Shown here: positions 26,490 to 59,249 of the stretch, piece after piece
Layout of the letters: every line of letters begins with the position of its first letter
Position numbering within the stretch: position 1 is the stretch's first letter
Sequence record: PZ049338.1
Length of the DNA stretch: 64,000 nt
Reading direction: 5' to 3' (one strand)
Source of the DNA: a phage
Made by a program: the position numbers and the translations under genes
Notes under the pieces: model-generated
Told to the model about the DNA's origin: nothing
Seen by the model: the letters and a program-made list of their open reading frames with translations, nothing else
Database searches by the model: none

Positions 26490-26511
26490 AAAAAGGCACC
26501 CGAAGGTGCCC
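26490..26511 (-). terminator. Rho-independent terminator (UUCG tetraloop) upstream of ligase
   Basis: On - strand GGGCACC-TTCG-GGTGCC followed by TTTTT. Confidence 0.5.
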
Positions 26512-26518
26512 TCTTAAA

Positions 26519-28567: not shown

Positions 28568-28575
28568 GTACTGAT

Positions 28576-28599
28576 GAAAGAAAACCCCTCCGAAGAGGG
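28576..28599 (-). terminator. UUCG-tetraloop hairpin plus U-tract immediately upstream of sigma gene (terminator/attenuator)
   Basis: On - strand CCCCTC-TTCG-GAGGGG followed by TTTTCTTTC, ends 9 nt before sigma ATG. Confidence 0.5.
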
Positions 28600-28796
28600 G
28601 CTAAGTTTCAAGCCGCACTTAAGGTAGCGAATCACCTTTACAAACAGCCTCTATCTGTTGCACACCGTTAGCATTAAGGTTCCGGGTTCTATATTATCGA
28701 GGATAAAGTATATGCTGATGGACATATAGGCCATAGGTTATCTCCCAATTAGCCATCACCTTGGGGTAACATGCCCTTGCCGCTGTTTGAATTTAA

Positions 28797-34835: not shown

Positions 34836-34938
34836 ATCTACCTCAACATTACTAGCCGTACACCTGACGAATCAGTTGGGAGTTAAGTCGGCATTCGTAG
34901 TTATCCTTGCCGCCTCCGAAGAGGCAGCGATGTAGGTC

Positions 34939-43831: not shown

Positions 43832-43887
43832 TTCTCACCCCTTGTTATGTTCGACAAAGGCCACTCCGAAGAATGACCTTTAGCAAA

Positions 43888-45477: not shown

Positions 45478-45703
45478 TGAACGCTTGATGTTTTGCCAAC
45501 TTCTTTTTCATGAGTTTGTTGTGGACTTGAAGAATATTAGAGACCTCTTTGGTGACAGTCACATGAGGTACAGCAACACCTTCAGCGAATTTTAGTCGCT
45601 TAAAGGGAGCGACAAGGTAAATGAACTTAGCAACTTCAGTGTTGTTTCGTAAATTTACCTCTTCCCCATTAGTTAACTTATAATACACCCAGAGATTCCA
45701 CAA
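45428..45703 (-). CDS. Small protein ending in SSB-like acidic tail DYDDESPF
   Basis: C-terminal motif resembling the SSB C-terminal tip. Confidence 0.35.
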   Translation of the reverse strand: MWNLWVYYKLTNGEEVNLRNNTEVAKFIYLVAPFKRLKFAEGVAVPHVTVTKEVSNILQVHNKLMKKKLAKHQAFIDSIVYGEDYDDESPF

Positions 45704-46865
45704 TAATTACATCGTTAGTTGTAACCATGATTTCCCAGCCAGCCAGTTCGAACATACCACCGGTGAATACACCTACGTTACGAACATCATCGTTACGCAT
45801 CTGAACGATGTAGATGCCGTTTTCAACCAAGCGAATTGGTTCCTGACGCGTCACAGTAGCTGTTACCTCTGCTTCGATAGCGAAGTTTTCATCTTCAGCA
45901 GCTTCTACTGCATTGTCTGTGGCAGTCTGGTTCTGAGTTACAATGTCAACCAGTTCCTGAGCGGCAGCGTTACCACGAACGATTGCTGCTTGCAATTCAC
46001 TGTTGGTGTTCACTTCATTTTGCAATTCAGCCAGAGCTTCATTAATATCTTCGACAGCATAAACTTCCTGACCATTGAAGATTGCCATTACGTTGGCTGC
46101 AAAACGTTCTGCGTTAGAACCGGTCATACCCGGAGCAGTGTTAACTTCCAGTACCCACGCTTCATCACGACGAGTAATGAGGTCAACTGCACCGTAGTCC
46201 AGACCCAGAGCAGCGATTGCTTTCAGGGCTTCACGCTTAGCTTCTTCATTAGGCTCAGCCTGCTGAGTTGCATAAATCCAACCAGTGTGGTGATTTCGGA
46301 TAATATCACTGTATTCTGGCAGGTCAGCGTAACCGTTCACACGCTTCTTCTGCTGAATGTTAGTGATAACACCATTCATCACATGGATGCGGTATTCACG
46401 ACGCTGAGCATTAACACCCTTGGTGTAAAGCTGTGCATTAGCCAGAGTACCTTGAACACCATCACCGAAAAGCTCTTCGTTGTTGGTTGCAATCACAATG
46501 CCTTCACCAGAGTGTCCAGAAAGGCGTGTACGGCAATAAACCAGATGACCTGCATCAAGCCATGACTGAGCTTCTTCACGGTCTGTAGTGTACTCTACAG
46601 TCTTCACATCATTGCGACGGAATACTTCGAAAGAGATACGTTTGTTGGTCGCATTACCAACGTTGTACGGGTTGTTCAGGATGCGGGCATTGCCGATGAT
46701 TTCGGCAGATAGGGAGGATGAACCGTAGTTGACAATTAAGTCACCACTGCGACCACGGAAGCGAGAGCCATCAGTCAGGAGACGAAGTGCTCCCGGCATT
46801 AAAGGCATGAGTTCGTTCAGGGTGTCAGAAGGGCCATTTGAATATACACGTAAGCGAGGTGCCAT
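45678..46865 (-). CDS. ATP-grasp ligase (RimK/glutathione-synthetase-like)
   Basis: Flexible loop RTRLSGHSGEGIVIA, EYRIHVMNG, DYGAVDLITRRDEAWVLEVNTAPGM matching ATP-grasp motifs. Confidence 0.75.
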   Translation of the reverse strand: MAPRLRVYSNGPSDTLNELMPLMPGALRLLTDGSRFRGRSGDLIVNYGSSSLSAEIIGNARILNNPYNVGNATNKRISFEVFRRNDVKTVEYTTDREEAQSWLDAGHLVYCRTRLSGHSGEGIVIATNNEELFGDGVQGTLANAQLYTKGVNAQRREYRIHVMNGVITNIQQKKRVNGYADLPEYSDIIRNHHTGWIYATQQAEPNEEAKREALKAIAALGLDYGAVDLITRRDEAWVLEVNTAPGMTGSNAERFAANVMAIFNGQEVYAVEDINEALAELQNEVNTNSELQAAIVRGNAAAQELVDIVTQNQTATDNAVEAAEDENFAIEAEVTATVTRQEPIRLVENGIYIVQMRNDDVRNVGVFTGGMFELAGWEIMVTTNDVIIVESLGVL

Positions 46866-46907
46866 TGTTGTTACCTTTTCAGTGGGTTGTTGGAAATCAA
46901 TATTATA

Positions 46908-46927
46908 AGAGGCTCCGAAGAACCTCT
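46908..46927 (-). terminator. Intergenic UUCG-tetraloop hairpin (weak terminator or processing site)
   Basis: On - strand AGAGGTTC-TTCG-GAGCCTCT; downstream tract only moderately U-rich. Confidence 0.3.
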
Positions 46928-46938
46928 GAAATATGGAC

Positions 46939-47178
46939 TTAAGCGGCCATCAATGCGATGAGTTTGCGGTTTTCATTCCTGAGAGCACCAATCTCATCAT
47001 CAATAAGACTGTAGTGGTACGATAACATTTGGAGGGACATTTCACCTACATCTGAGGCAGTCATCTGCTCGACGTAAGTTGCCTTCTCCTCAATCAGCCG
47101 TCCAATGTCTTTGTTGTTTTGTGCTATTAAATCCATCGCCTCTTTACGAGCAGCTCTTGCGACTTCATTATCAGCCAT
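46939..47178 (-). CDS. Hypothetical protein (79 aa)
   Basis: ORF. Confidence 0.3.
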   Translation of the reverse strand: MADNEVARAARKEAMDLIAQNNKDIGRLIEEKATYVEQMTASDVGEMSLQMLSYHYSLIDDEIGALRNENRKLIALMAA

Positions 47179-47402
47179 TAGACTTCAATCCCCTTCAGAC
47201 GGCAGTAGTCAGCCAGCATCATGTGGATTGATACCGGATAAGGGATAGCCACTTTAACACCTTTTTGCTCTTCGTAAAGACCAATCTGGTAGGCACGAAC
47301 TGCACGGAGCATATCAGAACCTAAATCAGTCATTGGAACTTTACGAATCACAACCGGGTTCTCCAGACGAAGAACCTTAACTTCTTTCATTGAATCATCC
47401 AT
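47178..47402 (-). CDS. Hypothetical protein (74 aa)
   Basis: ORF. Confidence 0.3.
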   Translation of the reverse strand: MDDSMKEVKVLRLENPVVIRKVPMTDLGSDMLRAVRAYQIGLYEEQKGVKVAIPYPVSIHMMLADYCRLKGIEV

Positions 47403-47417
47403 ATTCTCATTTACCTA

Positions 47418-49409
47418 TCATTTCTTGTTTGAAACTTTACCCGGAACCTTTCCAGTTTCCAGAACTTTTGAACAGCGTTCACAGCAAGGTGTACTGCCGA
47501 TAAACTCTGTAACCGCTGCTTTGTTGAAAGGAATCTTGTAGTTGCAGAAAGAGCAAGTGTTCATCTCTTCCCACTGAACCAGAGTCACTTTCATACCGTT
47601 TTGCAGAGACTTGCGATAAGTCAGGATTGGTCGGACATTACTGCCGCTATTCTTCCGCGCTTCCACAATCTCATTCTGGAGAGCTTTCAGTTCACTCTTC
47701 AGATGCTTGTTACTGTGGCACTGTAAGCAGAGGCTCTCAACCTCTGATTCAGCATCAACAGGTAACTCTTCTTGACAGTTGATACATTCAAAACGAAGCG
47801 AGTCGTCAGAGGACGTCTTTACACCATCAACTAACCCCGCATCTACACAACCACCACAATAGGCGTAATCATGATAGATTGTTGAGTCTGCCACGAAATC
47901 GAACGGTATTGGAGAGCCACAGTTTCCGCAGCAATTGTAAGACCCGTTTCCCTCCCATTCCTTTTTTGTGACTACAGTTCCGTCACGAGTTGTGTCCATT
48001 GTGTAACCATCATCTTCCTCTTCTTCGAGTTCAGAGAAGTCACCAATTGAAACACCGGGAGTGGTAAGAGTTAGAGCCGGCGGGGTACGATTGTTCTTGA
48101 CAGTGTTGAACTCTGTCAGAATATCATTGATATCTTCATCTAACGAACCTTCATCATCCAAATCCAATGTTGAAGGAATTAGGGTCTCACCTTGTGGTGA
48201 AACATCAGATACGATGATAGTCAGGATGTAGTTTGATTCGTAACAAGAGATAATCTTGCCTTCGAACATACCACCATCGGTGTACATTTCCAGAGGAACG
48301 CCATGACCCTGAACCTCAATGTAAGCGCCTTCACCTATCCAACCGGTAAGTTGACCTTTCTGAGGATTCTTAGGATACGGTTCGTACTGATACGCTTCGA
48401 ACACCATACGTTCATGCATCTTGTATGGAACCTGATGCACTTCCAGAAGTTCGTTAAGCTGCTTGTACTTGTTGCTCACTGAATCAGGGACACCAATGTG
48501 AGAAGGCTCAACGTTGCTTCGATTAACGCTGCTGCGAGAAGGATTGTTATAAACACGCGACGAGCCGTAGGTGTCATAACGGTCTGAAAAGTAGTCATCA
48601 TACGACTGGTAGGAATTGCCCCAGTAGCGCGATTGGTATACCGTTTGAAACACAGGCAGCTCGTGCTTGATTTCCTCCTTAAATACCAGACCATCAGTTG
48701 CATCAAATACATACTGAGTTCCGACTTCGAGTTCAAACTCTTTGTCGAAAGTTGGGTTCCACTTCTTACGGGACATAATCCACTTGAGCATGTCCTTCTC
48801 AGAAGCACCATACCAGTCACCACCAGTGGTCTTCATCATGTAGAATGGACGCTCGTCGTTACGCAGGAAGTTCAGCGTATTCAGCTTAGCGTCATGCCAC
48901 ACCAGAACGAATGCACCATGCAATTTCTTGATGGTTTCTTCGATACCGATAGTTGCGATTGAATGGCAAACGTTCTCACTGTCCACTTCAAACTGCTCAT
49001 GGTCAGGGAGTAGGCTTTGGTTTACTAATGAGCCGTTGTGAACCAGAGTGATATGTCCACATTGGAATGGGTGGGCGTTCTTGTCAACCACAGCTCCAGC
49101 AGTTGCATAGCGGTTGTGACCAACAATGAATCGAGGGTACGACACTGATGTTGTTTTAACACCGAGGTTGTTAACATTCTCAGAACGATGCTGAGCAATA
49201 TCTTTCCACAGAGTTGAACGAAGGAAAATGTCACTTGGTACAGCTTTCTTAGCCGTCTTCAAGAAGGCATCCTGCTGATACGGCTTGTAATAAGCCATCA
49301 CCCCAGTTGAATGGTCGCCTCGGAACACATCGGCATACAACATCTGCTCGAAACGCTCGAGGTTAGTTGAAGATAAGGCGGTTCCACCTACAAATACAAT
49401 TCCACACAT
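47418..49409 (-). CDS. Class-II (Ntn) glutamine amidotransferase-like protein with C-terminal triple zinc-ribbon region
   Basis: N-terminal MCGIV nucleophile; C-terminal CxxC pairs (CGNC...CGGC, CINC...CLQC, CSFC...CERC). Confidence 0.55.
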   Translation of the reverse strand: MCGIVFVGGTALSSTNLERFEQMLYADVFRGDHSTGVMAYYKPYQQDAFLKTAKKAVPSDIFLRSTLWKDIAQHRSENVNNLGVKTTSVSYPRFIVGHNRYATAGAVVDKNAHPFQCGHITLVHNGSLVNQSLLPDHEQFEVDSENVCHSIATIGIEETIKKLHGAFVLVWHDAKLNTLNFLRNDERPFYMMKTTGGDWYGASEKDMLKWIMSRKKWNPTFDKEFELEVGTQYVFDATDGLVFKEEIKHELPVFQTVYQSRYWGNSYQSYDDYFSDRYDTYGSSRVYNNPSRSSVNRSNVEPSHIGVPDSVSNKYKQLNELLEVHQVPYKMHERMVFEAYQYEPYPKNPQKGQLTGWIGEGAYIEVQGHGVPLEMYTDGGMFEGKIISCYESNYILTIIVSDVSPQGETLIPSTLDLDDEGSLDEDINDILTEFNTVKNNRTPPALTLTTPGVSIGDFSELEEEEDDGYTMDTTRDGTVVTKKEWEGNGSYNCCGNCGSPIPFDFVADSTIYHDYAYCGGCVDAGLVDGVKTSSDDSLRFECINCQEELPVDAESEVESLCLQCHSNKHLKSELKALQNEIVEARKNSGSNVRPILTYRKSLQNGMKVTLVQWEEMNTCSFCNYKIPFNKAAVTEFIGSTPCCERCSKVLETGKVPGKVSNKK

Positions 49410-49465
49410 GGATAATAATCCTCTAAGTTCATTTAAATGGGGCCGAAGCCCCTGTTTGTTAATAC

Positions 49466-51133
49466 TTAAGCGATATGGTCGTTATCTGGCTCATAATCAT
49501 CGTCTTCTTCAATATCGTCATCTTCAGATGATTCATACATATCGTAATCACCACCACGACGAGGTACAGGGACTTCATTACGAGCTTCACGGTTCTCTTC
49601 ATTACGCATGTCTACGAACTGACGGTAGAAGTTTCCGAACAGACGAGAACGTTGAGCCTGATTGGTTTCGTAGATGAACCAATCAATGTCAAAAGTGATG
49701 CCAAGCATATCGCACTTCCAACGCAACTCAGCTAACCAACGGAATGTCAGCATTGGAGGGCGGGTGTTCTCCAACAACCAAGTGCCATTACTGCGGGTTT
49801 CCAGATTGATTCGCAGGTGTTCCCAATAGCGAGGTTCCAGATAGAAATTTGTACGATGACTTGAATCATCCTCGGCAGATTTCACAGTGTGAACGTAAGC
49901 ACTGAGTTTGCGTAGGGTTGACATTGAAATCACTTCATATGCCAGTTTGTAGCCAATGTCCAAATCTTCTTCGAAGTTCTGAACAACCTTCGGCAGACCC
50001 TTACGAATTGCGCTGTGAATCGGCAATGTTGATAGGTACTCAATGAAGTCACTATCAGTACCTTCGAAGTTCACCGCCAGTTCCTTCAGTGATAAGAAGC
50101 GGTTAGTCAGGCGAATAATGCTGCCCTTACGCCACTTGGCCTCACTAATACGGAATTCAACTGAACCAAAACTACTCATCGGTAACAAGTTCAGTGAAGT
50201 GTACTTATCCCATTCACGGGTTACACGATTAGTGAAATCGTGGTTGTCCAGATGCCAGTTGTTAGCCAGAGTAGCTAACTGCTCCTGTGCAAAACCAAGA
50301 GCAACACAGAAGTTGTTCTTGTAACGATGCCAACCAGAGCAGCGGAACAGTACACGCTCATAAACAATATACGCAAGAATCATGCGCTTCAGTTGAGCGA
50401 CACTCAAATCACGTACATCAATGTGAACGTGGGTGGAGCAACGCCAAGATGTATCTGGCGTATGACGGAACAGGAAGGAGTCGATTTCCAGGGATGCTGC
50501 ATAGAGGTCACGACCACCCCAAGGGGATGAACATACAAACTCCATACCTGAGTTACGAAGTGAACCATCTAGCTTTGCTTCCCAATACTGGAAAGTTGGC
50601 TCATCACTGAGGTGAATCTCTTCGAGTTCAATCTCAATACCTGCCAGATGTGTTCCAACAATTAAAGGATGACCCTGAATAGTTGGGTAGGTTGCACGTT
50701 GCCCGTAAATCTGTGCAATATTCATGTTATTCGATACCTCTACGTTTCCGGAGATGAAGCCGTTGCGGCTTGGATTATTAACGCTTCCGTGTCTCTGGTT
50801 ACCAATCTCTTCCCGTAGATTGTCTCGTGTGTATGCGTGTTGACCTCTTTGAAGTCCAGTGAAGAGGCTAGGTCTCTGGCTTTCGCGCTCCATTCTCCGC
50901 TGTCTTGCTTGTTCATCAGCACGGTTATTCAACCACGTCATGAAGGCACTATCTTCTGACTGAGCTACCCCCTGATTCACTATTGGCACAGGTGGCTCTT
51001 CGAAAGCTTGAGATACAACACTTTCTGTTACATTCGGAGGTTGATAATTAGCCCATCTGTCCATGTGTACAGTGGCTTCAACGTCGAAGAAACCCCCAGT
51101 TAATCCTGGGGAGTTGTTACTGTTATTTGGCAC
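49466..51133 (-). CDS. Amidoligase-like protein (GCS2/glutamine-synthetase-like fold candidate) with acidic C-terminus
   Basis: THVHID H-x-H motif; operon context with ATP-grasp and amidotransferase. Confidence 0.35.
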   Translation of the reverse strand: MPNNSNNSPGLTGGFFDVEATVHMDRWANYQPPNVTESVVSQAFEEPPVPIVNQGVAQSEDSAFMTWLNNRADEQARQRRMERESQRPSLFTGLQRGQHAYTRDNLREEIGNQRHGSVNNPSRNGFISGNVEVSNNMNIAQIYGQRATYPTIQGHPLIVGTHLAGIEIELEEIHLSDEPTFQYWEAKLDGSLRNSGMEFVCSSPWGGRDLYAASLEIDSFLFRHTPDTSWRCSTHVHIDVRDLSVAQLKRMILAYIVYERVLFRCSGWHRYKNNFCVALGFAQEQLATLANNWHLDNHDFTNRVTREWDKYTSLNLLPMSSFGSVEFRISEAKWRKGSIIRLTNRFLSLKELAVNFEGTDSDFIEYLSTLPIHSAIRKGLPKVVQNFEEDLDIGYKLAYEVISMSTLRKLSAYVHTVKSAEDDSSHRTNFYLEPRYWEHLRINLETRSNGTWLLENTRPPMLTFRWLAELRWKCDMLGITFDIDWFIYETNQAQRSRLFGNFYRQFVDMRNEENREARNEVPVPRRGGDYDMYESSEDDDIEEDDDYEPDNDHIA

Positions 51134-51717
51134 TGTGGTAATTCCTTGGCTAAAAAGCGAACCAAGTGACGTGCTTCAGCAGCCACTTCGATAGCATCGT
51201 CAGAGAGGAACTTACCGATGCTCACATCCTTGTAGCGTAAGTCTGAATTGACACGCAGGAATACCCCTCCAATAACTTCAGGATACTCATTTTTGTTGAA
51301 GAACGCTTTGATGTTCTCCCAACTAAAGCGGAAGTTGTTACAGATACGGCTGTGGGTTAACCCCTTCTTAGTTGAGCGATTTGCACGATAACTGACCCAT
51401 ACGAAGTTGTTTCCAATCTTCACGAATGCAGGCTCAGGTAATTCTAGAACCAGATTCGGGTCAGTATGAGAGATGGATACGTTACGGTAATTACCATCGT
51501 CACCCATCGTCGTTCCGTGGAATACCAGAGCATCTTCAGCTTCCTGAGAATACGCTGCACGGTCACGCTGTGCTCGCGTCATTTCACTGAAATCCAGAAC
51601 AGTATTGTCATGGGTCACTGCGTCAATCTGGAAGGGCTGGACTTTACCAGCCTCATCCTTCAGACCAACGTAAGTCCCAGAGTAATACATTGAGAAATCG
51701 TCGGTAAGCATTAGCAA
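51100..51717 (-). CDS. Hypothetical protein (205 aa), translationally coupled in amidoligase operon
   Basis: Overlaps both neighbours by short coupling overlaps. Confidence 0.4.
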   Translation of the reverse strand: MLMLTDDFSMYYSGTYVGLKDEAGKVQPFQIDAVTHDNTVLDFSEMTRAQRDRAAYSQEAEDALVFHGTTMGDDGNYRNVSISHTDPNLVLELPEPAFVKIGNNFVWVSYRANRSTKKGLTHSRICNNFRFSWENIKAFFNKNEYPEVIGGVFLRVNSDLRYKDVSIGKFLSDDAIEVAAEARHLVRFLAKELPQCQITVTTPQD

Positions 51718-52514
51718 ATCTCCATCACACGTACATATTCTTTAGCCAGAGCTTTGTCATTGTTGTTAATGACACGCTGTACTTCTTCCGGGTTGATGAT
51801 TGATGCGATGCCACGGAAATCACCACGCATCATAGCGAATGCTTTCTGAGCTTGTTCCCAAGCCCATTTGCGATTCTCTTTGTTCATAATCCAGAAGTTG
51901 GACATTACACGATATTCGATACCGTATGGCTTGAAGCGGCAAGCACCAGCTTTACCATACAGTTCTTTTCGACGGTCATCACCGTCCAGCAGGAGGGCGG
52001 GCAGTCCCAGGAAGTAGTCACACATCACGCCGAGAACTTTCTGACTTTCGGACGTCACAGTAGTAACTGTATCGTAGCCAACGTGGATGTGACCACCTGC
52101 TGTACGAAGACCGGGGTCAGCAGCTTGAGGTTTAGGATTACGCATACCAGTCAGTGCGTTGTAATCAGGCTCACAGCCGAATACGAATGCATCTTTGTGG
52201 AAGCGTTCCAGTTCAGCAGCGGTGTAGATATGAGAACTGACATTCATTGCCAGTTCATGACCTACATAACCAACTGCTTCTTCACAGTATTTGATACCAT
52301 CAACAATGTTCTTGTCGAAGGATTCAAAATCACTATGCGGGTTGGTGTCGAACTCAACCAGCACGTTATCTTCCTGAATACGAACGTCTTCCGTGACTGC
52401 TTTCTTGTTGTACTTGTCCGCTCCAAGCAGACCTGAAACAGAACTGATAGCCCCTGTGCTCGAATCACGAGTGAACAACTCAGGGTCGGTAGCCAACAAA
52501 ATAACATTAGACAT
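51711..52514 (-). CDS. Amidoligase-like protein (second copy, 267 aa)
   Basis: GGHIHVGY H-x-H motif. Confidence 0.4.
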   Translation of the reverse strand: MSNVILLATDPELFTRDSSTGAISSVSGLLGADKYNKKAVTEDVRIQEDNVLVEFDTNPHSDFESFDKNIVDGIKYCEEAVGYVGHELAMNVSSHIYTAAELERFHKDAFVFGCEPDYNALTGMRNPKPQAADPGLRTAGGHIHVGYDTVTTVTSESQKVLGVMCDYFLGLPALLLDGDDRRKELYGKAGACRFKPYGIEYRVMSNFWIMNKENRKWAWEQAQKAFAMMRGDFRGIASIINPEEVQRVINNNDKALAKEYVRVMEIC

Positions 52515-54690: not shown

Positions 54691-55062
54691 TTATTCAGTT
54701 ACTTGCAGCTTGGAAGATTCCCAAAGCTGGTCTACCAGATGAACGCGCTTAACTGCGTCGTCAATGAATTGGTTGAGTTGAATACGCTGGAACTTCTCAG
54801 CCTGACGAGAAAGCAGGAGCTCTTGGTACTGAGCTTTCAGGAAGTTGCGAGTTACCACCAGAGTTTTCTGACGATGCCCAGCTTTGCCCAGACGGATTTC
54901 AGCATTAATAACACTGAGTTGGTCGCTGATTGATTTGCGTAGGACTTTCGCCGCAGACACTTCCAGATTAAAACGCTTAAGGTCTTTACGAGCGTTAGTC
55001 AGTGCTGAGCCTTCAGATTTCAGGATTGCTTCGATAGTTGCGATATTACCAATCTTATTCAT
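54691..55062 (-). CDS. Hypothetical coiled-coil protein (123 aa)
   Basis: ORF. Confidence 0.35.
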   Translation of the reverse strand: MNKIGNIATIEAILKSEGSALTNARKDLKRFNLEVSAAKVLRKSISDQLSVINAEIRLGKAGHRQKTLVVTRNFLKAQYQELLLSRQAEKFQRIQLNQFIDDAVKRVHLVDQLWESSKLQVTE

Positions 55063-55507
55063 TGCTTTTACCCTTAGGTTTGTGGAGTTTTAGGAAATAA
55101 TGGTTACGATATTTAAACGCTTTCTTACCTTTAGCCCAATAAGGTCTATCAGTACCACTGTAGAAGTGGGTGTAGCGATACTTGGGTTTATAACCGGGCT
55201 TCATCACCTTGCTGGCTAAGAACATTGCCTGTGCATAAGCTGCCTTCTCTTGACTCGTTTGTGGGTGAGTCTTGAAGACCTTCTTTTGCATAGTCAGCAA
55301 ACCGTTGAAGTCTTTGTGTTTAAGGCGTTTTGTCCAATCGAACTGACTCTTTTGCAGAACAACTTTACAAGCAGTATCTGGGTAACGTTCATCAGTGACA
55401 CGAGTCGCTATAACATCAGCAACTAATTCCATGCCCTTGTCACCCTCGCCTCCGGCCTCCGTATATATTGTTAATGTAAGTGCTAATAAGCACGCTGCAA
55501 AGCTCAT
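55055..55507 (-). CDS. SleB-like cell-wall hydrolase with N-terminal signal/SAR-like segment
   Basis: Hydrophobic N-terminus then EAGGEG...VADVIATRV...YPDT motif resembling SleB/Hydrolase_2 family. Confidence 0.5.
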   Translation of the reverse strand: MSFAACLLALTLTIYTEAGGEGDKGMELVADVIATRVTDERYPDTACKVVLQKSQFDWTKRLKHKDFNGLLTMQKKVFKTHPQTSQEKAAYAQAMFLASKVMKPGYKPKYRYTHFYSGTDRPYWAKGKKAFKYRNHYFLKLHKPKGKSNE

Positions 55508-55568: not shown

Positions 55569-55832
55569 CTACGAAGCAGTTATTTCAACTGATTTAAATA
55601 CCTTCTCAACAGGTAGGTTGTGGGCCATATTTCGGGCTTCACCTGTTTCGAGATTAACAACTTTCATGTACTCTTTACCACGGCAAACACCACCGAGTAG
55701 CATATATACACGGTGCAATGGGCACCCTTCGAGGGCAAATACAGAGCCCATATGTAACTCACCAACAGTGATAGTTGTTGGATTAAGGTTAGTGGTAATT
55801 TTAACCTTTGTCATTTTCGACAATCTCCACAC
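55569..55832 (-). CDS. Small protein, member of 6-copy paralog family
   Basis: Shares G-x-x-F...VNLETG core motif. Confidence 0.4.
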   Translation of the reverse strand: MWRLSKMTKVKITTNLNPTTITVGELHMGSVFALEGCPLHRVYMLLGGVCRGKEYMKVVNLETGEARNMAHNLPVEKVFKSVEITAS

Positions 55833-56280
55833 GAGGACAGTATTTATCTTTATTGCTGCGATACATCACAACAATCCAGTTTGAATCACGACGCTCTTTC
55901 TTACGTCGTTTCTTTTCAGCACGAGTTTCATATGTGCCAGTTCGGTAGTCACGGTATATTCCACGAAGGTAGTAGAATAACCAACCAACACCAAATGATA
56001 CACCAGCCAAAGCAGCAAAAGATAAGGCACCAAGAGCAGGGGCAGCGAACCATGTCCACCAATTGAATGACAAAATATTCTCATGTCCAAGGAGAGAGCC
56101 ACCAACCATTGACAGTGCAGCGTACAATACTGCAATGAGACCTGATAGCATCACAAAATGAAATACTGTCCGCCAGAAGTATTCGCAGAAGTTGCTCATG
56201 TTATCCCAATGATAACTGGAAAGGCTTGACATTTTTTTGTTAAACTTGTGCAGCCAACCGTTCTTATTAACCTTAATCAT
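55801..56280 (-). CDS. Membrane protein with 2-3 TM helices (holin candidate)
   Basis: Hydrophobic segments FHFVMLSGLIAVLYAALSMVGG and WTWFAAPALGALSFAALAGVSFGVGWLFYY; basic C-terminus. Confidence 0.4.
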   Translation of the reverse strand: MIKVNKNGWLHKFNKKMSSLSSYHWDNMSNFCEYFWRTVFHFVMLSGLIAVLYAALSMVGGSLLGHENILSFNWWTWFAAPALGALSFAALAGVSFGVGWLFYYLRGIYRDYRTGTYETRAEKKRRKKERRDSNWIVVMYRSNKDKYCPRVEIVENDKG

Positions 56281-56546
56281 TACGCATCCCCGATATGTTT
56301 ACATTCAACTTTAACACGGACAACCTGAGTATCAGCCAGTGGTGCGCTGACATTACCAGTCTCGATGTTAGTCAGGTGTACGCGGTGGTATCCCGGAAGA
56401 GCATTAATACTAACATTTGAGGAGTTGGCTACATCACCAACTAGGTAAAGAGTGTCGCCATTAACAAAACGAACAACTTCACCGGGTTTTGCTTGACAAA
56501 GACCAATAACTTTTGGCATTGGTACTTTTGATTTTGTCACTTTCAT
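56280..56546 (-). CDS. Small protein, member of 6-copy paralog family
   Basis: VRFVNGDTLYLVGD...INALPG motif. Confidence 0.4.
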   Translation of the reverse strand: MKVTKSKVPMPKVIGLCQAKPGEVVRFVNGDTLYLVGDVANSSNVSINALPGYHRVHLTNIETGNVSAPLADTQVVRVKVECKHIGDA

Positions 56547-56848
56547 TTATGTAACCTCAGGAATACATGTAACACAGTGGATGCACGGTTAGTAACTGAA
56601 TTAACCGAACGGTTTAGCTTCTTTGCAATCCAATCGCGAGGACGAATACCAGCCCACTTGCGAATGAAGTCATCATCCTTGTCAGTGTAAGGTTGACGCT
56701 GTTTTGCACGGGAGATTTTGAATCGTGAGCAGGCACCAATGATAACCGTCACAGTAGTACCCATCTTTTCAGCCACTTCTTCAACTGAATACTTCTTAAT
56801 CAAACGTTCTAAACGCTTGATGTTCTTATTTGTCCAAGTAAATTGCAT
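56543..56848 (-). CDS. HTH DNA-binding protein (101 aa)
   Basis: YSVEEVAEKMGTTVTVI helix-turn-helix-like segment. Confidence 0.35.
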   Translation of the reverse strand: MQFTWTNKNIKRLERLIKKYSVEEVAEKMGTTVTVIIGACSRFKISRAKQRQPYTDKDDDFIRKWAGIRPRDWIAKKLNRSVNSVTNRASTVLHVFLRLHK

Positions 56849-57118
56849 ATGAACCTCCTAAGTATTTAATAAAGGGCTCCGTAGAACCCTTGATAATTAC
56901 TCAGCATCAACAGTGAGTGAAATGCCGAATGCGATTAGGGCAAGAACTACAGCCGCTATTGCATACCAATCCATAATCACTCCTTATTCCATTTAACATT
57001 AAATGAGATAAGGCACGCCGCTGCCAGTGCAGTTTCAACAACAGCGATCACATGATTACCAACAGTCACATCGTATATCGCAAATCCCAACCAGAATGCT
57101 GTAAGGTACAGATATAGT

Positions 57119-57871
57119 TTACGACTGGATAATGCTTTCTTGAGCCAGTTCATCTTTCACCTGTTTAAGTGTAAATGTATTGTCGTCACAATCAATACCA
57201 ATAGGGCCGATAATACGGTATTTAGTATTGCGAGTTTCAACAAAGAAAGTACCAACCTTCTCAGAGATATTTACTACACGGGAGGTACTGATTGACAACC
57301 CATCACGGAAAGGGTGATTTCCGTGAGTGTGGGTATCGCTCCAGATTCGACCAGTCATGTACCAGTTGCTATCATTGGACTTGTAAATGATAGCAGATGA
57401 CAGTTTGGCGTCGAATTGTGGAATTGGTAATGGGACATAACCTTCACGCAGTATCGGATTTTGTTCATCCGGCATTTGAGTGAAAGGCTTCATCTCAAAC
57501 ATTATTTCAAAGTCACGAGCCCATTGGCGAATCCGTTTTGGATTTAAACCATTGACACGTTTGAAGTAACCCTGCTGATGTTCAGCACTGATTAATTCAT
57601 ATGACAAATCCAAATCCGTACGATGAACAGTGGAACACATCATCATAAGGTATTCATGACGACCACACCACACGTAAAGAAGATGTCCAATCTCCTCTTT
57701 AGTGAAATCTGTCGCTTCCGCCAGACGGTCAGTGATACCAAGCGCCAGTGGTTCAGGGAAACGCTTGTAGAAAAGGATTGGGAACTTCTCAATAAGTTCC
57801 GGCATACGACGCTTATAGAAATCGTACTGAACAGGGGTAACAGGGCGAAGTTTTACGCGTTGAGTTGTCAT
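57119..57871 (-). CDS. Protein with ProQ/FinO-like N-terminal RNA-binding domain
   Basis: LIEKFPILFY...PLALGITDRL...LLYVWCGRHEYL parallels E. coli ProQ N-terminal domain pattern. Confidence 0.4.
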   Translation of the reverse strand: MTTQRVKLRPVTPVQYDFYKRRMPELIEKFPILFYKRFPEPLALGITDRLAEATDFTKEEIGHLLYVWCGRHEYLMMMCSTVHRTDLDLSYELISAEHQQGYFKRVNGLNPKRIRQWARDFEIMFEMKPFTQMPDEQNPILREGYVPLPIPQFDAKLSSAIIYKSNDSNWYMTGRIWSDTHTHGNHPFRDGLSISTSRVVNISEKVGTFFVETRNTKYRIIGPIGIDCDDNTFTLKQVKDELAQESIIQS

Positions 57872-58134
57872 CTATTTGCCTCACATTTAATTACTTCGTT
57901 TATTTCTTCAGCCACACTCTTTGCCTCTTTATACGAGGTTAGTAAAGAGTTCCAGTAATCGTCACGGTATTCGTGAACAGTTAATGAACTAAGGCGCTCT
58001 TTGTAATACTTAGCGCGCTTTATTGCATCACGTCCAGTTTCTATCATGTGACGTGTGTTTTTAAGTCTTTTATTTCTGACGAGATTCTTCGTCATCCATA
58101 AATTTACGCTTCTTGTGTTCATAATGAACCTCAA
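57868..58134 (-). CDS. Hypothetical basic protein (88 aa)
   Basis: ORF. Confidence 0.3.
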   Translation of the reverse strand: MRFIMNTRSVNLWMTKNLVRNKRLKNTRHMIETGRDAIKRAKYYKERLSSLTVHEYRDDYWNSLLTSYKEAKSVAEEINEVIKCEANR

Positions 58135-58466
58135 TTGCGATGATTGTCACAACTGCAACAGCAGCGAGAGCGTATTCAATCCACCAGATATCAGCTAGGC
58201 TTGACATAGATGAAACCCTCATAGGCGGTGTAGATGAACTTACGACCGAGCAGTGTGCCTACAAGCACGTACTTTTGTTTAGTGGAGTTGGACACTACGG
58301 CCCCCCTGATATGGTGAGGAGTTAGGATACCAGAACATGTTCTTACTGTTTGCAATCATACCGAATCCGGTAAGACCCATCAGTTGGTCACACAATGCTT
58401 GAGCGATTGATTGAGGCTTGGTGGTAGATTCACTAACCTTGAAACTGACTTTAGGCTCTTTGTACA

Positions 58467-58757
58467 TTACAAACCCCCATGTCTACATTTAACAAGAATG
58501 CCGTCAATGATGATGTAGTGTGAATGGTAAACCATTTCACGAGGTATATCACCATGTTCGCTGTTCCACTGGATAAAGTTCATCCGTTCCCAATCAATAT
58601 ATTGGGACTTCGCTTGAGCAATTACTTCTTCCAGAGTGACTTCACCATAAGGACTCATTGACTTCATCATTTCACAAACTGACATATCAACTCCTGTCAA
58701 AGTCGAGAACAACACTACCGTTCTTCTCAATCTCAGCCATAACTTTATTGTACTCAT
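58467..58757 (-). CDS. Hypothetical protein (96 aa)
   Basis: ORF. Confidence 0.3.
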   Translation of the reverse strand: MSTIKLWLRLRRTVVLFSTLTGVDMSVCEMMKSMSPYGEVTLEEVIAQAKSQYIDWERMNFIQWNSEHGDIPREMVYHSHYIIIDGILVKCRHGGL

Positions 58758-58998
58758 TCACTGTTCGAACGAGTGCAGCCTTCGGGTTGGCTTGCATGGC
58801 AATACCCATGACAACGCCTTGAACTTGAGGGTCAGTCACCCAAGTATTAACGATTGCTGATGCACAACCAACAATCTTAGGAATCACGCGTGGTTTACGC
58901 TTTTCAGTGCGAGCACTATCACACTCGATAAGGTAAGTCATTATCAGTGCTTCAAGGGCTTCCTCATACTGAAAGAGTTTTTCATCTTGAACAATCAT
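58687..58998 (-). CDS. Hypothetical protein (103 aa)
   Basis: ORF; start region preceded by hairpin. Confidence 0.3.
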   Translation of the reverse strand: MIVQDEKLFQYEEALEALIMTYLIECDSARTEKRKPRVIPKIVGCASAIVNTWVTDPQVQGVVMGIAMQANPKAALVRTVNEYNKVMAEIEKNGSVVLDFDRS

Positions 58999-59249
58999 TA
59001 GAAGTCCTTAAAATAGGAGGCGGGGACGAGCCGCCTTTACCCTATGAGTTAAGTTTGCATGTAAGACCTAACAATCGGATGCCTTCAGCGGAATAAGCGT
59101 TATGCGTATCCTGCACTAAACTCCCGCCCCCTTAGTGGGCTGGGTGTATAAAGGGTAACGCCCTTATGGGCTAGTTACATGAATGTTAGTTTGATAGGAG
59201 ATCTGACGTCCTATCTCAAAGGGCTCTCAGAAGAACCCTTTACGATAGT

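Follow-up and report, generated by a model that had tools for sequence, protein, structure and literature searches.

The gene analyzed here lies on the minus strand of a 64,000-nucleotide stretch of phage DNA (sequence record PZ049338.1, hereafter the window), where the list of open reading frames (ORFs) confirms a frame of 250 codons that starts with ATG and encodes 250 amino acids (Table 1). The original prediction had placed a gene at this position, and its coordinates proved exact. The ATG is preceded at a distance of 7 nt by a GAGG Shine-Dalgarno sequence and overlaps the TGA of the upstream ORF (ATGA), and all genes from approximately 64 kb down to approximately 22 kb of the window point leftward, an arrangement consistent with an operon whose genes are closely packed and translationally coupled. 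Judged by gene content, the source phage is phiEco32-like: large rightward ORFs occupy approximately 2.7 to 20.4 kb on the strand opposite to the leftward genes, the leftward genes include those for a family A DNA polymerase and a primase-helicase, and the window further contains a phiEco32-type peptide-ligase cluster and a cell-wall hydrolase. Salmonella phage PKM.Hi.22.6, a member of the Grimontviridae in which the neighboring genes are all annotated as hypothetical, shares 95% identity with this region, and its hypothetical protein WKV17153.1 is 97% identical to the protein encoded here. The phage protein family phrog_35316 matches the protein over its full length (E 2e-69), and a search against NCBIfam gave no match. 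In the AF2 model of the 250-amino-acid protein (pLDDT 87.9, pTM 0.80) an N-terminal FinO/ProQ domain is joined to a C-terminal beta domain by a linker that is mostly non-regular, and the beta domain is followed by an amphipathic helix confined to the closest homologues (P0001 to P0003 and partly P0007 in alignment A1).

Table 1. Positions of the two-domain gene, its protein segments, neighboring genes and hairpins (window coordinates unless a locus is named).
Feature	Position	Strand	Source
Whole gene, two-domain protein (FinO/ProQ + DUF6957-like)	57119..57871	-	ORF list
Shine-Dalgarno GAGG	57879..57882	-	read from sequence
ATGA overlap with upstream ORF	57871..57868	-	read from sequence
FinO/ProQ domain, aa 13-125	57497..57835	-	
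Pfam PF04352 match, aa 24-101	57569..57802	-	
Linker, aa 126-152; conserved F130, N138, P139	57416..57496	-	alignment A1
C-terminal beta domain, aa 153-230, DUF6957-like	57182..57415	-	
C-terminal amphipathic helix, aa 235-249, lineage-specific	57125..57169	-	AF2 secondary structure
58-aa hydrophobic ORF	56977-57153	-	
101-aa protein, phrog_323	56543-56848	-	
88- and 87-aa proteins, phrog_7832	56280-56546, 55569-55832	-	
159-aa membrane protein, phrog_944	55801-56280		
150-aa endolysin candidate, phrog_938	55055-55507	-	
123-aa ORF	54691-55062	-	
Peptide-ligase cluster	45678-52514	-	
Tetraloop stem-loops	56859-56903, 59211-59248	-	
Further tetraloop stem-loops	26490-26515, 28575-28610, 34909-34928, 43851-43886, 46896-46938	-	
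Srd-like/C-domain gene pair (GAP52 gp013-gp014)	L006 2001-2740		
Srd-like/C-domain gene pair	L004 3517-4237		
Srd-like/C-domain gene pair	L007 1523-2243		

The last 35 nt of the gene are overlapped by an ORF for a hydrophobic protein of 58 amino acids, which is a CDS in PKM.Hi.22.6 and has no family match. Past this ORF and a gap of 128 nt, the second gene downstream from the FinO gene encodes a 101-amino-acid protein that matches phrog_323 ('transcriptional regulator, D5-like', E 1.7e-17) and has no Pfam match. Farther along are 2 proteins of 87 and 88 amino acids that both belong to phrog_7832 and look like diverged paralogues, with a membrane protein of phrog_944 ('host takeover') between them. 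An endolysin candidate separates this block of small genes from the replication and ligase genes and is overlapped on its downstream side by a 123-amino-acid ORF without a family match. The peptide-ligase cluster comprises a COOH-NH2 ligase (PF14395), an amidoligase, a glutamine amidotransferase and an ATP-grasp enzyme. Matches to the sigma70-promoter and terminator consensus around the gene were no commoner than in shuffled sequences, Rfam and tRNA scans of the whole window came back empty, and the PADLOC defense models gave no match for the FinO-fusion protein.

The position of the gene points to its time of expression. In phiEco32-like phages the early host-takeover class is formed by small genes of low conservation that are clustered in leftward orientation, and the gene analyzed here is located in such a leftward small-gene block, upstream of the replication genes. 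In phage 7-11, early sigma70 promoters are located upstream of gene 151 and give rise to long leftward polycistronic RNAs, and the first late promoter is found at gene 69 (PMC8948821). The homologous gene of 7-11, gp122, falls between the gene 151 early promoters and the gene 69 late promoter. Because the block in the window is equivalent to the early stretch of 7-11, synteny suggests that our gene is also expressed early.

[quoted passage not shown] A search with the Pfam profile of this family (PF04352) gave 37 bits, above the curated gathering score of 27 (E 3.6e-9), with amino acids 24 to 101 aligned to profile positions 9 to 91 of 109. Searching the PDB with the single sequence returned only noise, and a family profile was needed: an HMMER profile of the N-domain built from 13 phage homologues matched all 5 FinO-domain proteins of solved structure and nothing else significantly, namely ProQ (5nb9, E 1.2e-6), RocC (3e-3), NMB1681 (6e-3), FinO (0.02) and Lpp1663 (0.04). 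The predicted structure has the mostly alpha-helical FinO fold, and its 4 best fold matches in the PDB are all FinO-domain RNA chaperones. By sequence signature and predicted fold, the N-terminal part is thus a genuine FinO/ProQ domain. Neither a missed profile nor an unrelated fold was found, and with the profile match present and the fold FinO-like, the original interpretation stands; its description of the protein as a fusion to an unknown C-terminal domain also agrees with our results, the C-terminal part being distinct and lacking functional annotation. The same prediction proposed, as a hypothesis, that the protein could manipulate the small-RNA networks of the host or the stability of phage transcripts.

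To map RNA-binding residues, we combined HMMER alignments to ProQ, RocC and NMB1681 with the published analysis of the RocC-RocR crystal structure (PMC9674577). RocC binds RNA ending in a hairpin and a short pyrimidine tail, of which the 3'-terminal nucleotide is clamped in a pocket involving Gly52, Tyr87 and Arg97 (PMC9674577). A helical N-cap motif formed by Ser70-Lys71 ... Arg75 binds the hairpin; most family members have Arg or Lys at its last position, and the R75D mutation reduces RNA binding by more than 100-fold (PMC9674577). The pocket is kept in the phage protein: RocC Gly52, Tyr87 and Arg97, equivalent to ProQ G37, Y70 and R80, correspond to G45, Y74 and R84, of which G45 is nearly invariant and the other 2 are invariant among the 13 phage homologues. 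The N-cap motif is kept in part. Ser70 (ProQ S53) is represented by T57, nearly invariant in the phage family, and Lys71 (ProQ K54) by K58, a variable position, and the place of Arg75 (ProQ R58) is taken by G62, which is Gly, Ser or Ala in the phage proteins. This missing arginine is the main caveat to canonical RNA binding by the protein. The phage proteins share a strongly conserved N-terminal motif, RPVxPxQYDFYKRRMPE, with a basic KRR (K20-R21-R22) on the first helix, and this motif may make up for the absent arginine. Predicted pI values are 8.6 for the N-domain, which is thus only mildly basic, and 7.1 for the approximately neutral whole protein.

The C-terminal domain (amino acids approximately 153 to 230) is predicted by AF2 to consist of 7 beta strands followed by a helix. 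It has no Pfam (E <= 1) or NCBIfam match of its own, and it does not itself reach the gathering score of DUF6957 (PF22275). We also considered whether it is the Tudor-like C-terminal domain of ProQ (ProQ_C, PF17516) and rejected this, the domain not qualifying as ProQ_C. When 1.84 billion cluster representatives were searched exhaustively with a profile of the domain, 95 clusters were recovered at E <= 1e-3. Nearly all are stand-alone proteins of 65 to 95 amino acids; a few carry the domain in tandem or joined to other segments without annotation, and only approximately 5 are FinO fusions. Among 88 proteins from this search, 33 matched PF22275 at E <= 1, and one of them (P0071; E 1.8e-5 with the C-domain profile) scored 29.6 bits, above the gathering score of 27. 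All these matches are restricted to profile positions approximately 57 to 99 of 112, a core of approximately 45 residues, and because the intermediates share this same core, we place the C-domain, transitively, in a superfamily of DUF6957-like proteins, whose core motif is G.I..D...F.DG..I.TS.V...T.NT.Y. In P0060 (186 amino acids) the domain is duplicated in tandem, and in P0033 (251 amino acids) and P0091 (226 amino acids) it is fused to other phage segments without annotation (phrog_6870 and phrog_9469 N-terminal parts), which shows that it is a mobile module. Homologues differ widely in the predicted pI of the domain (4.6 to 9.6), a spread that argues against conserved electrostatic binding of RNA or other nucleic acids and for binding of a protein or ligand.

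A Foldseek comparison with predicted viral structures and a tblastn search of 50,697 phage genomes showed that the C-domain occurs in many lytic phages, including LIMElight, Proteus phage P59, phiCbK, the JD18-like T4 relatives of Klebsiella and VR7 ("cd.1"). Its matches are all unnamed, uncharacterized or hypothetical save the 7-11 fusion, which carries a ProQ/FinO label, and one evidently misannotated Klebsiella-phage record; the 6 PHROG families that cover it have function-less labels, a literature search returned nothing on DUF6957, and PF04352 is the only known domain co-occurring with the C-domain family. The fusion itself is much rarer. Whole-protein homologues number 9 among 5.8 billion proteins, and among sequenced phages the fusion was found only in PKM.Hi.22.6, PKM.Lu.22.1 and the 7-11 group (7-11, SE131, SeKF_80 and pSal-SNUABM-01). 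This uncommon architecture is already annotated automatically, since UniProt and one GenBank record label homologues "ProQ/FinO". Several phage groups encode a FinO-domain protein, and the N-domain is found alone in 2 of them, the Erwinia phiEa21-4-like phages, where some copies are annotated as "proQ: RNA chaperone" or "sRNA-binding protein", and the Kuravirus-like coliphages (e.g., SU7_91). The C-domain is found alone in Crifsvirus phages (e.g., Cronobacter phage GAP52 gp014), where its gene and the 3' end of an Srd-like one (phrog_4592/1400, 'decoy of host sigma70') overlap and genes for a PRPP synthetase and NAMPT follow directly downstream (Table 1). In 7-11 the same PRPP synthetase/NAMPT pair is found two genes downstream of the fusion gene. 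A Rosetta-stone origin, by fission or fusion with an adjacent FinO gene, was rejected because no neighboring FinO and C-domain genes were found: the gene ahead of the stand-alone C-domain encodes an apparent membrane protein without FinO resemblance in Proteus phage P59 and is the Srd-like gene in GAP52-like phages, and the stand-alone FinO domain of SU7 is followed by a gene that, judged by eye, is unlike the C-domain.

Stable stem-loops with UUCG/UACG-type tetraloops, several of them with U-rich tails, fill many of the leftward intergenic gaps of the window (Table 1). The block from 56977 to 58998 that holds the FinO gene is bordered on each side by a AAGGGUUCU...GAGCCCUU hairpin. The 2 hairpins are near-identical (0 expected by chance) and both are conserved in PKM.Hi.22.6, and one lies approximately 75 nt downstream of the 58-amino-acid ORF that overlaps the FinO gene. 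These stem-loops could be terminators, processing sites or mRNA stabilizers. They are also candidate ligands of the FinO domain, the link to the protein being purely positional.

We consider it likely that the gene encodes an early phage RNA-binding protein of the FinO/ProQ family that acts on hairpin-bearing 3' ends, chiefly those of phage transcripts. The FinO domain would grip such ends, recognizing a terminator-like hairpin with a 3' tail, and its preferred targets would be the long leftward polycistronic transcripts of the phage itself with their UUCG-type hairpins, although host sRNAs of the ProQ type are alternative targets. Binding could shield phage transcripts from decay or aid RNA-RNA pairing, and the C-domain would most likely add a further surface for interactions, probably with a protein partner. 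This reading draws on the PF04352 score, the profile matches to PDB structures, the conserved pocket and the T57-K58 remnant of the N-cap, and on the early-block position together with the tetraloop hairpins. Against it stand G62 at the position of the critical arginine, the near-neutral charge of the protein with an only mildly basic N-domain, and the hairpin link, which is positional only, with no Rfam family or partner RNA in the window. The same pocket and the same early, host-takeover-type block would also suit a host-directed ProQ mimic that competes with or replaces host ProQ on host sRNAs and 3'UTRs, possibly including antitoxin RNAs from type I toxin-antitoxin loci, and so rewires host post-transcriptional control or prevents abortive infection. 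The hosts Salmonella and E. coli encode ProQ, whose regulon takes in toxin-antitoxin and prophage RNAs (PMC9977716); even so, we regard this mimicry as unlikely.

A repurposed FinO fold would also account for the family-wide replacement of the N-cap arginine by Gly or Ser and for the near-neutral protein. Canonical hairpin binding would then have been lost, the N-domain would serve as a protein- or DNA-binding scaffold, and the DUF6957-like domain would be the real effector, acting on a host factor as its autonomous relatives presumably do, for which its wide occurrence as an autonomous small early phage protein and its placement beside an Srd-like host-takeover gene in Crifsvirus could be cited. 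However, conservation of G45, Y74, R84 and T57 and of the basic YKRR on helix 1 is hard to explain without RNA-end binding, and phage FinO domains also occur without the C-domain, so that we judge such repurposing very improbable. A further reading, which we put forward as a speculation with a small chance of being right, joins both halves in an RNA-guided adaptor: the FinO domain would recognize 3' ends, and the DUF6957-like effector would bring a host factor, for example an RNA-decay or processing enzyme, to particular transcripts or shield them from it, possible targets being the 3' ends of phage mRNAs or antitoxin or defense RNAs of the host. If true, this would give a large uncharacterized phage domain family its first function, and it would be the first lytic phage shown to use a FinO-type chaperone.

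FinO/ProQ proteins are one of the 3 main classes of bacterial sRNA chaperones, and to our knowledge all experimental work on them concerns chromosomal and plasmid versions; a literature search returned no experimental study of any lytic-phage FinO-domain protein. The protein therefore offers a test case for whether virulent phages stabilize their own long transcripts or disturb host RNA regulation via 3'-end chaperones, for how a FinO domain binds RNA without the canonical N-cap arginine, and for the role of the widespread DUF6957-like domain. In practice the gain is modest: genes annotated "hypothetical protein" would receive a better label, and CLIP or gel-shift experiments a concrete target.

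Among annotated proteins, 7-11 gp122 (UniProt G0X555, 'ProQ/FinO domain-containing protein') has the same two-domain architecture, with approximately 50% identity over 93% of the length, as does the pSal-SNUABM-01 homologue ('putative ProQ/FINO family protein'). Like the window gene, gp122 is located in a leftward early cluster of a member of the Grimontviridae. It differs in its linker and in lacking the C-terminal helix, and its neighbors, with PRPP synthetase and NAMPT nearby, are unlike those in the window; a literature search returned nothing joining 7-11 with ProQ. The N-domain is 40% to 43% identical to the group of Erwinia phage phiEa21-4 gp115 and approximately 30% identical to the coliphage (SU7_91) group; these stand-alone proteins (phrog_18901) are 125 to 140 amino acids long and have no DUF6957-like domain. 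The C-domain is homologous to the small DUF6957-like proteins GAP52 gp014, Proteus phage P59 gp115, LIMElight and VR7 cd.1 and shares their core; these relatives are autonomous proteins of 65 to 95 amino acids, whereas the window copy adds a THGNHP loop common to its close relatives. Plasmid FinO/FopA-type systems have a dedicated antisense RNA partner encoded in cis beside the gene; in the window, intergenic hairpins are present and the Rfam scan gave no family. The chromosomal NMB1681 (the minimal ProQ of N. meningitidis) and RocC FinO domain (L. pneumophila) are 17% to 22% identical to the phage-encoded protein, which lacks the R75 equivalent and adds both RPVxPxQYDFYKRRMPE and the C-terminal beta domain. 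E. coli/Salmonella ProQ, the best PDB profile match, has the same order of FinO domain, linker and small C-terminal beta domain, with the position of its Tudor-like domain taken in the phage protein by the unrelated DUF6957-like domain.
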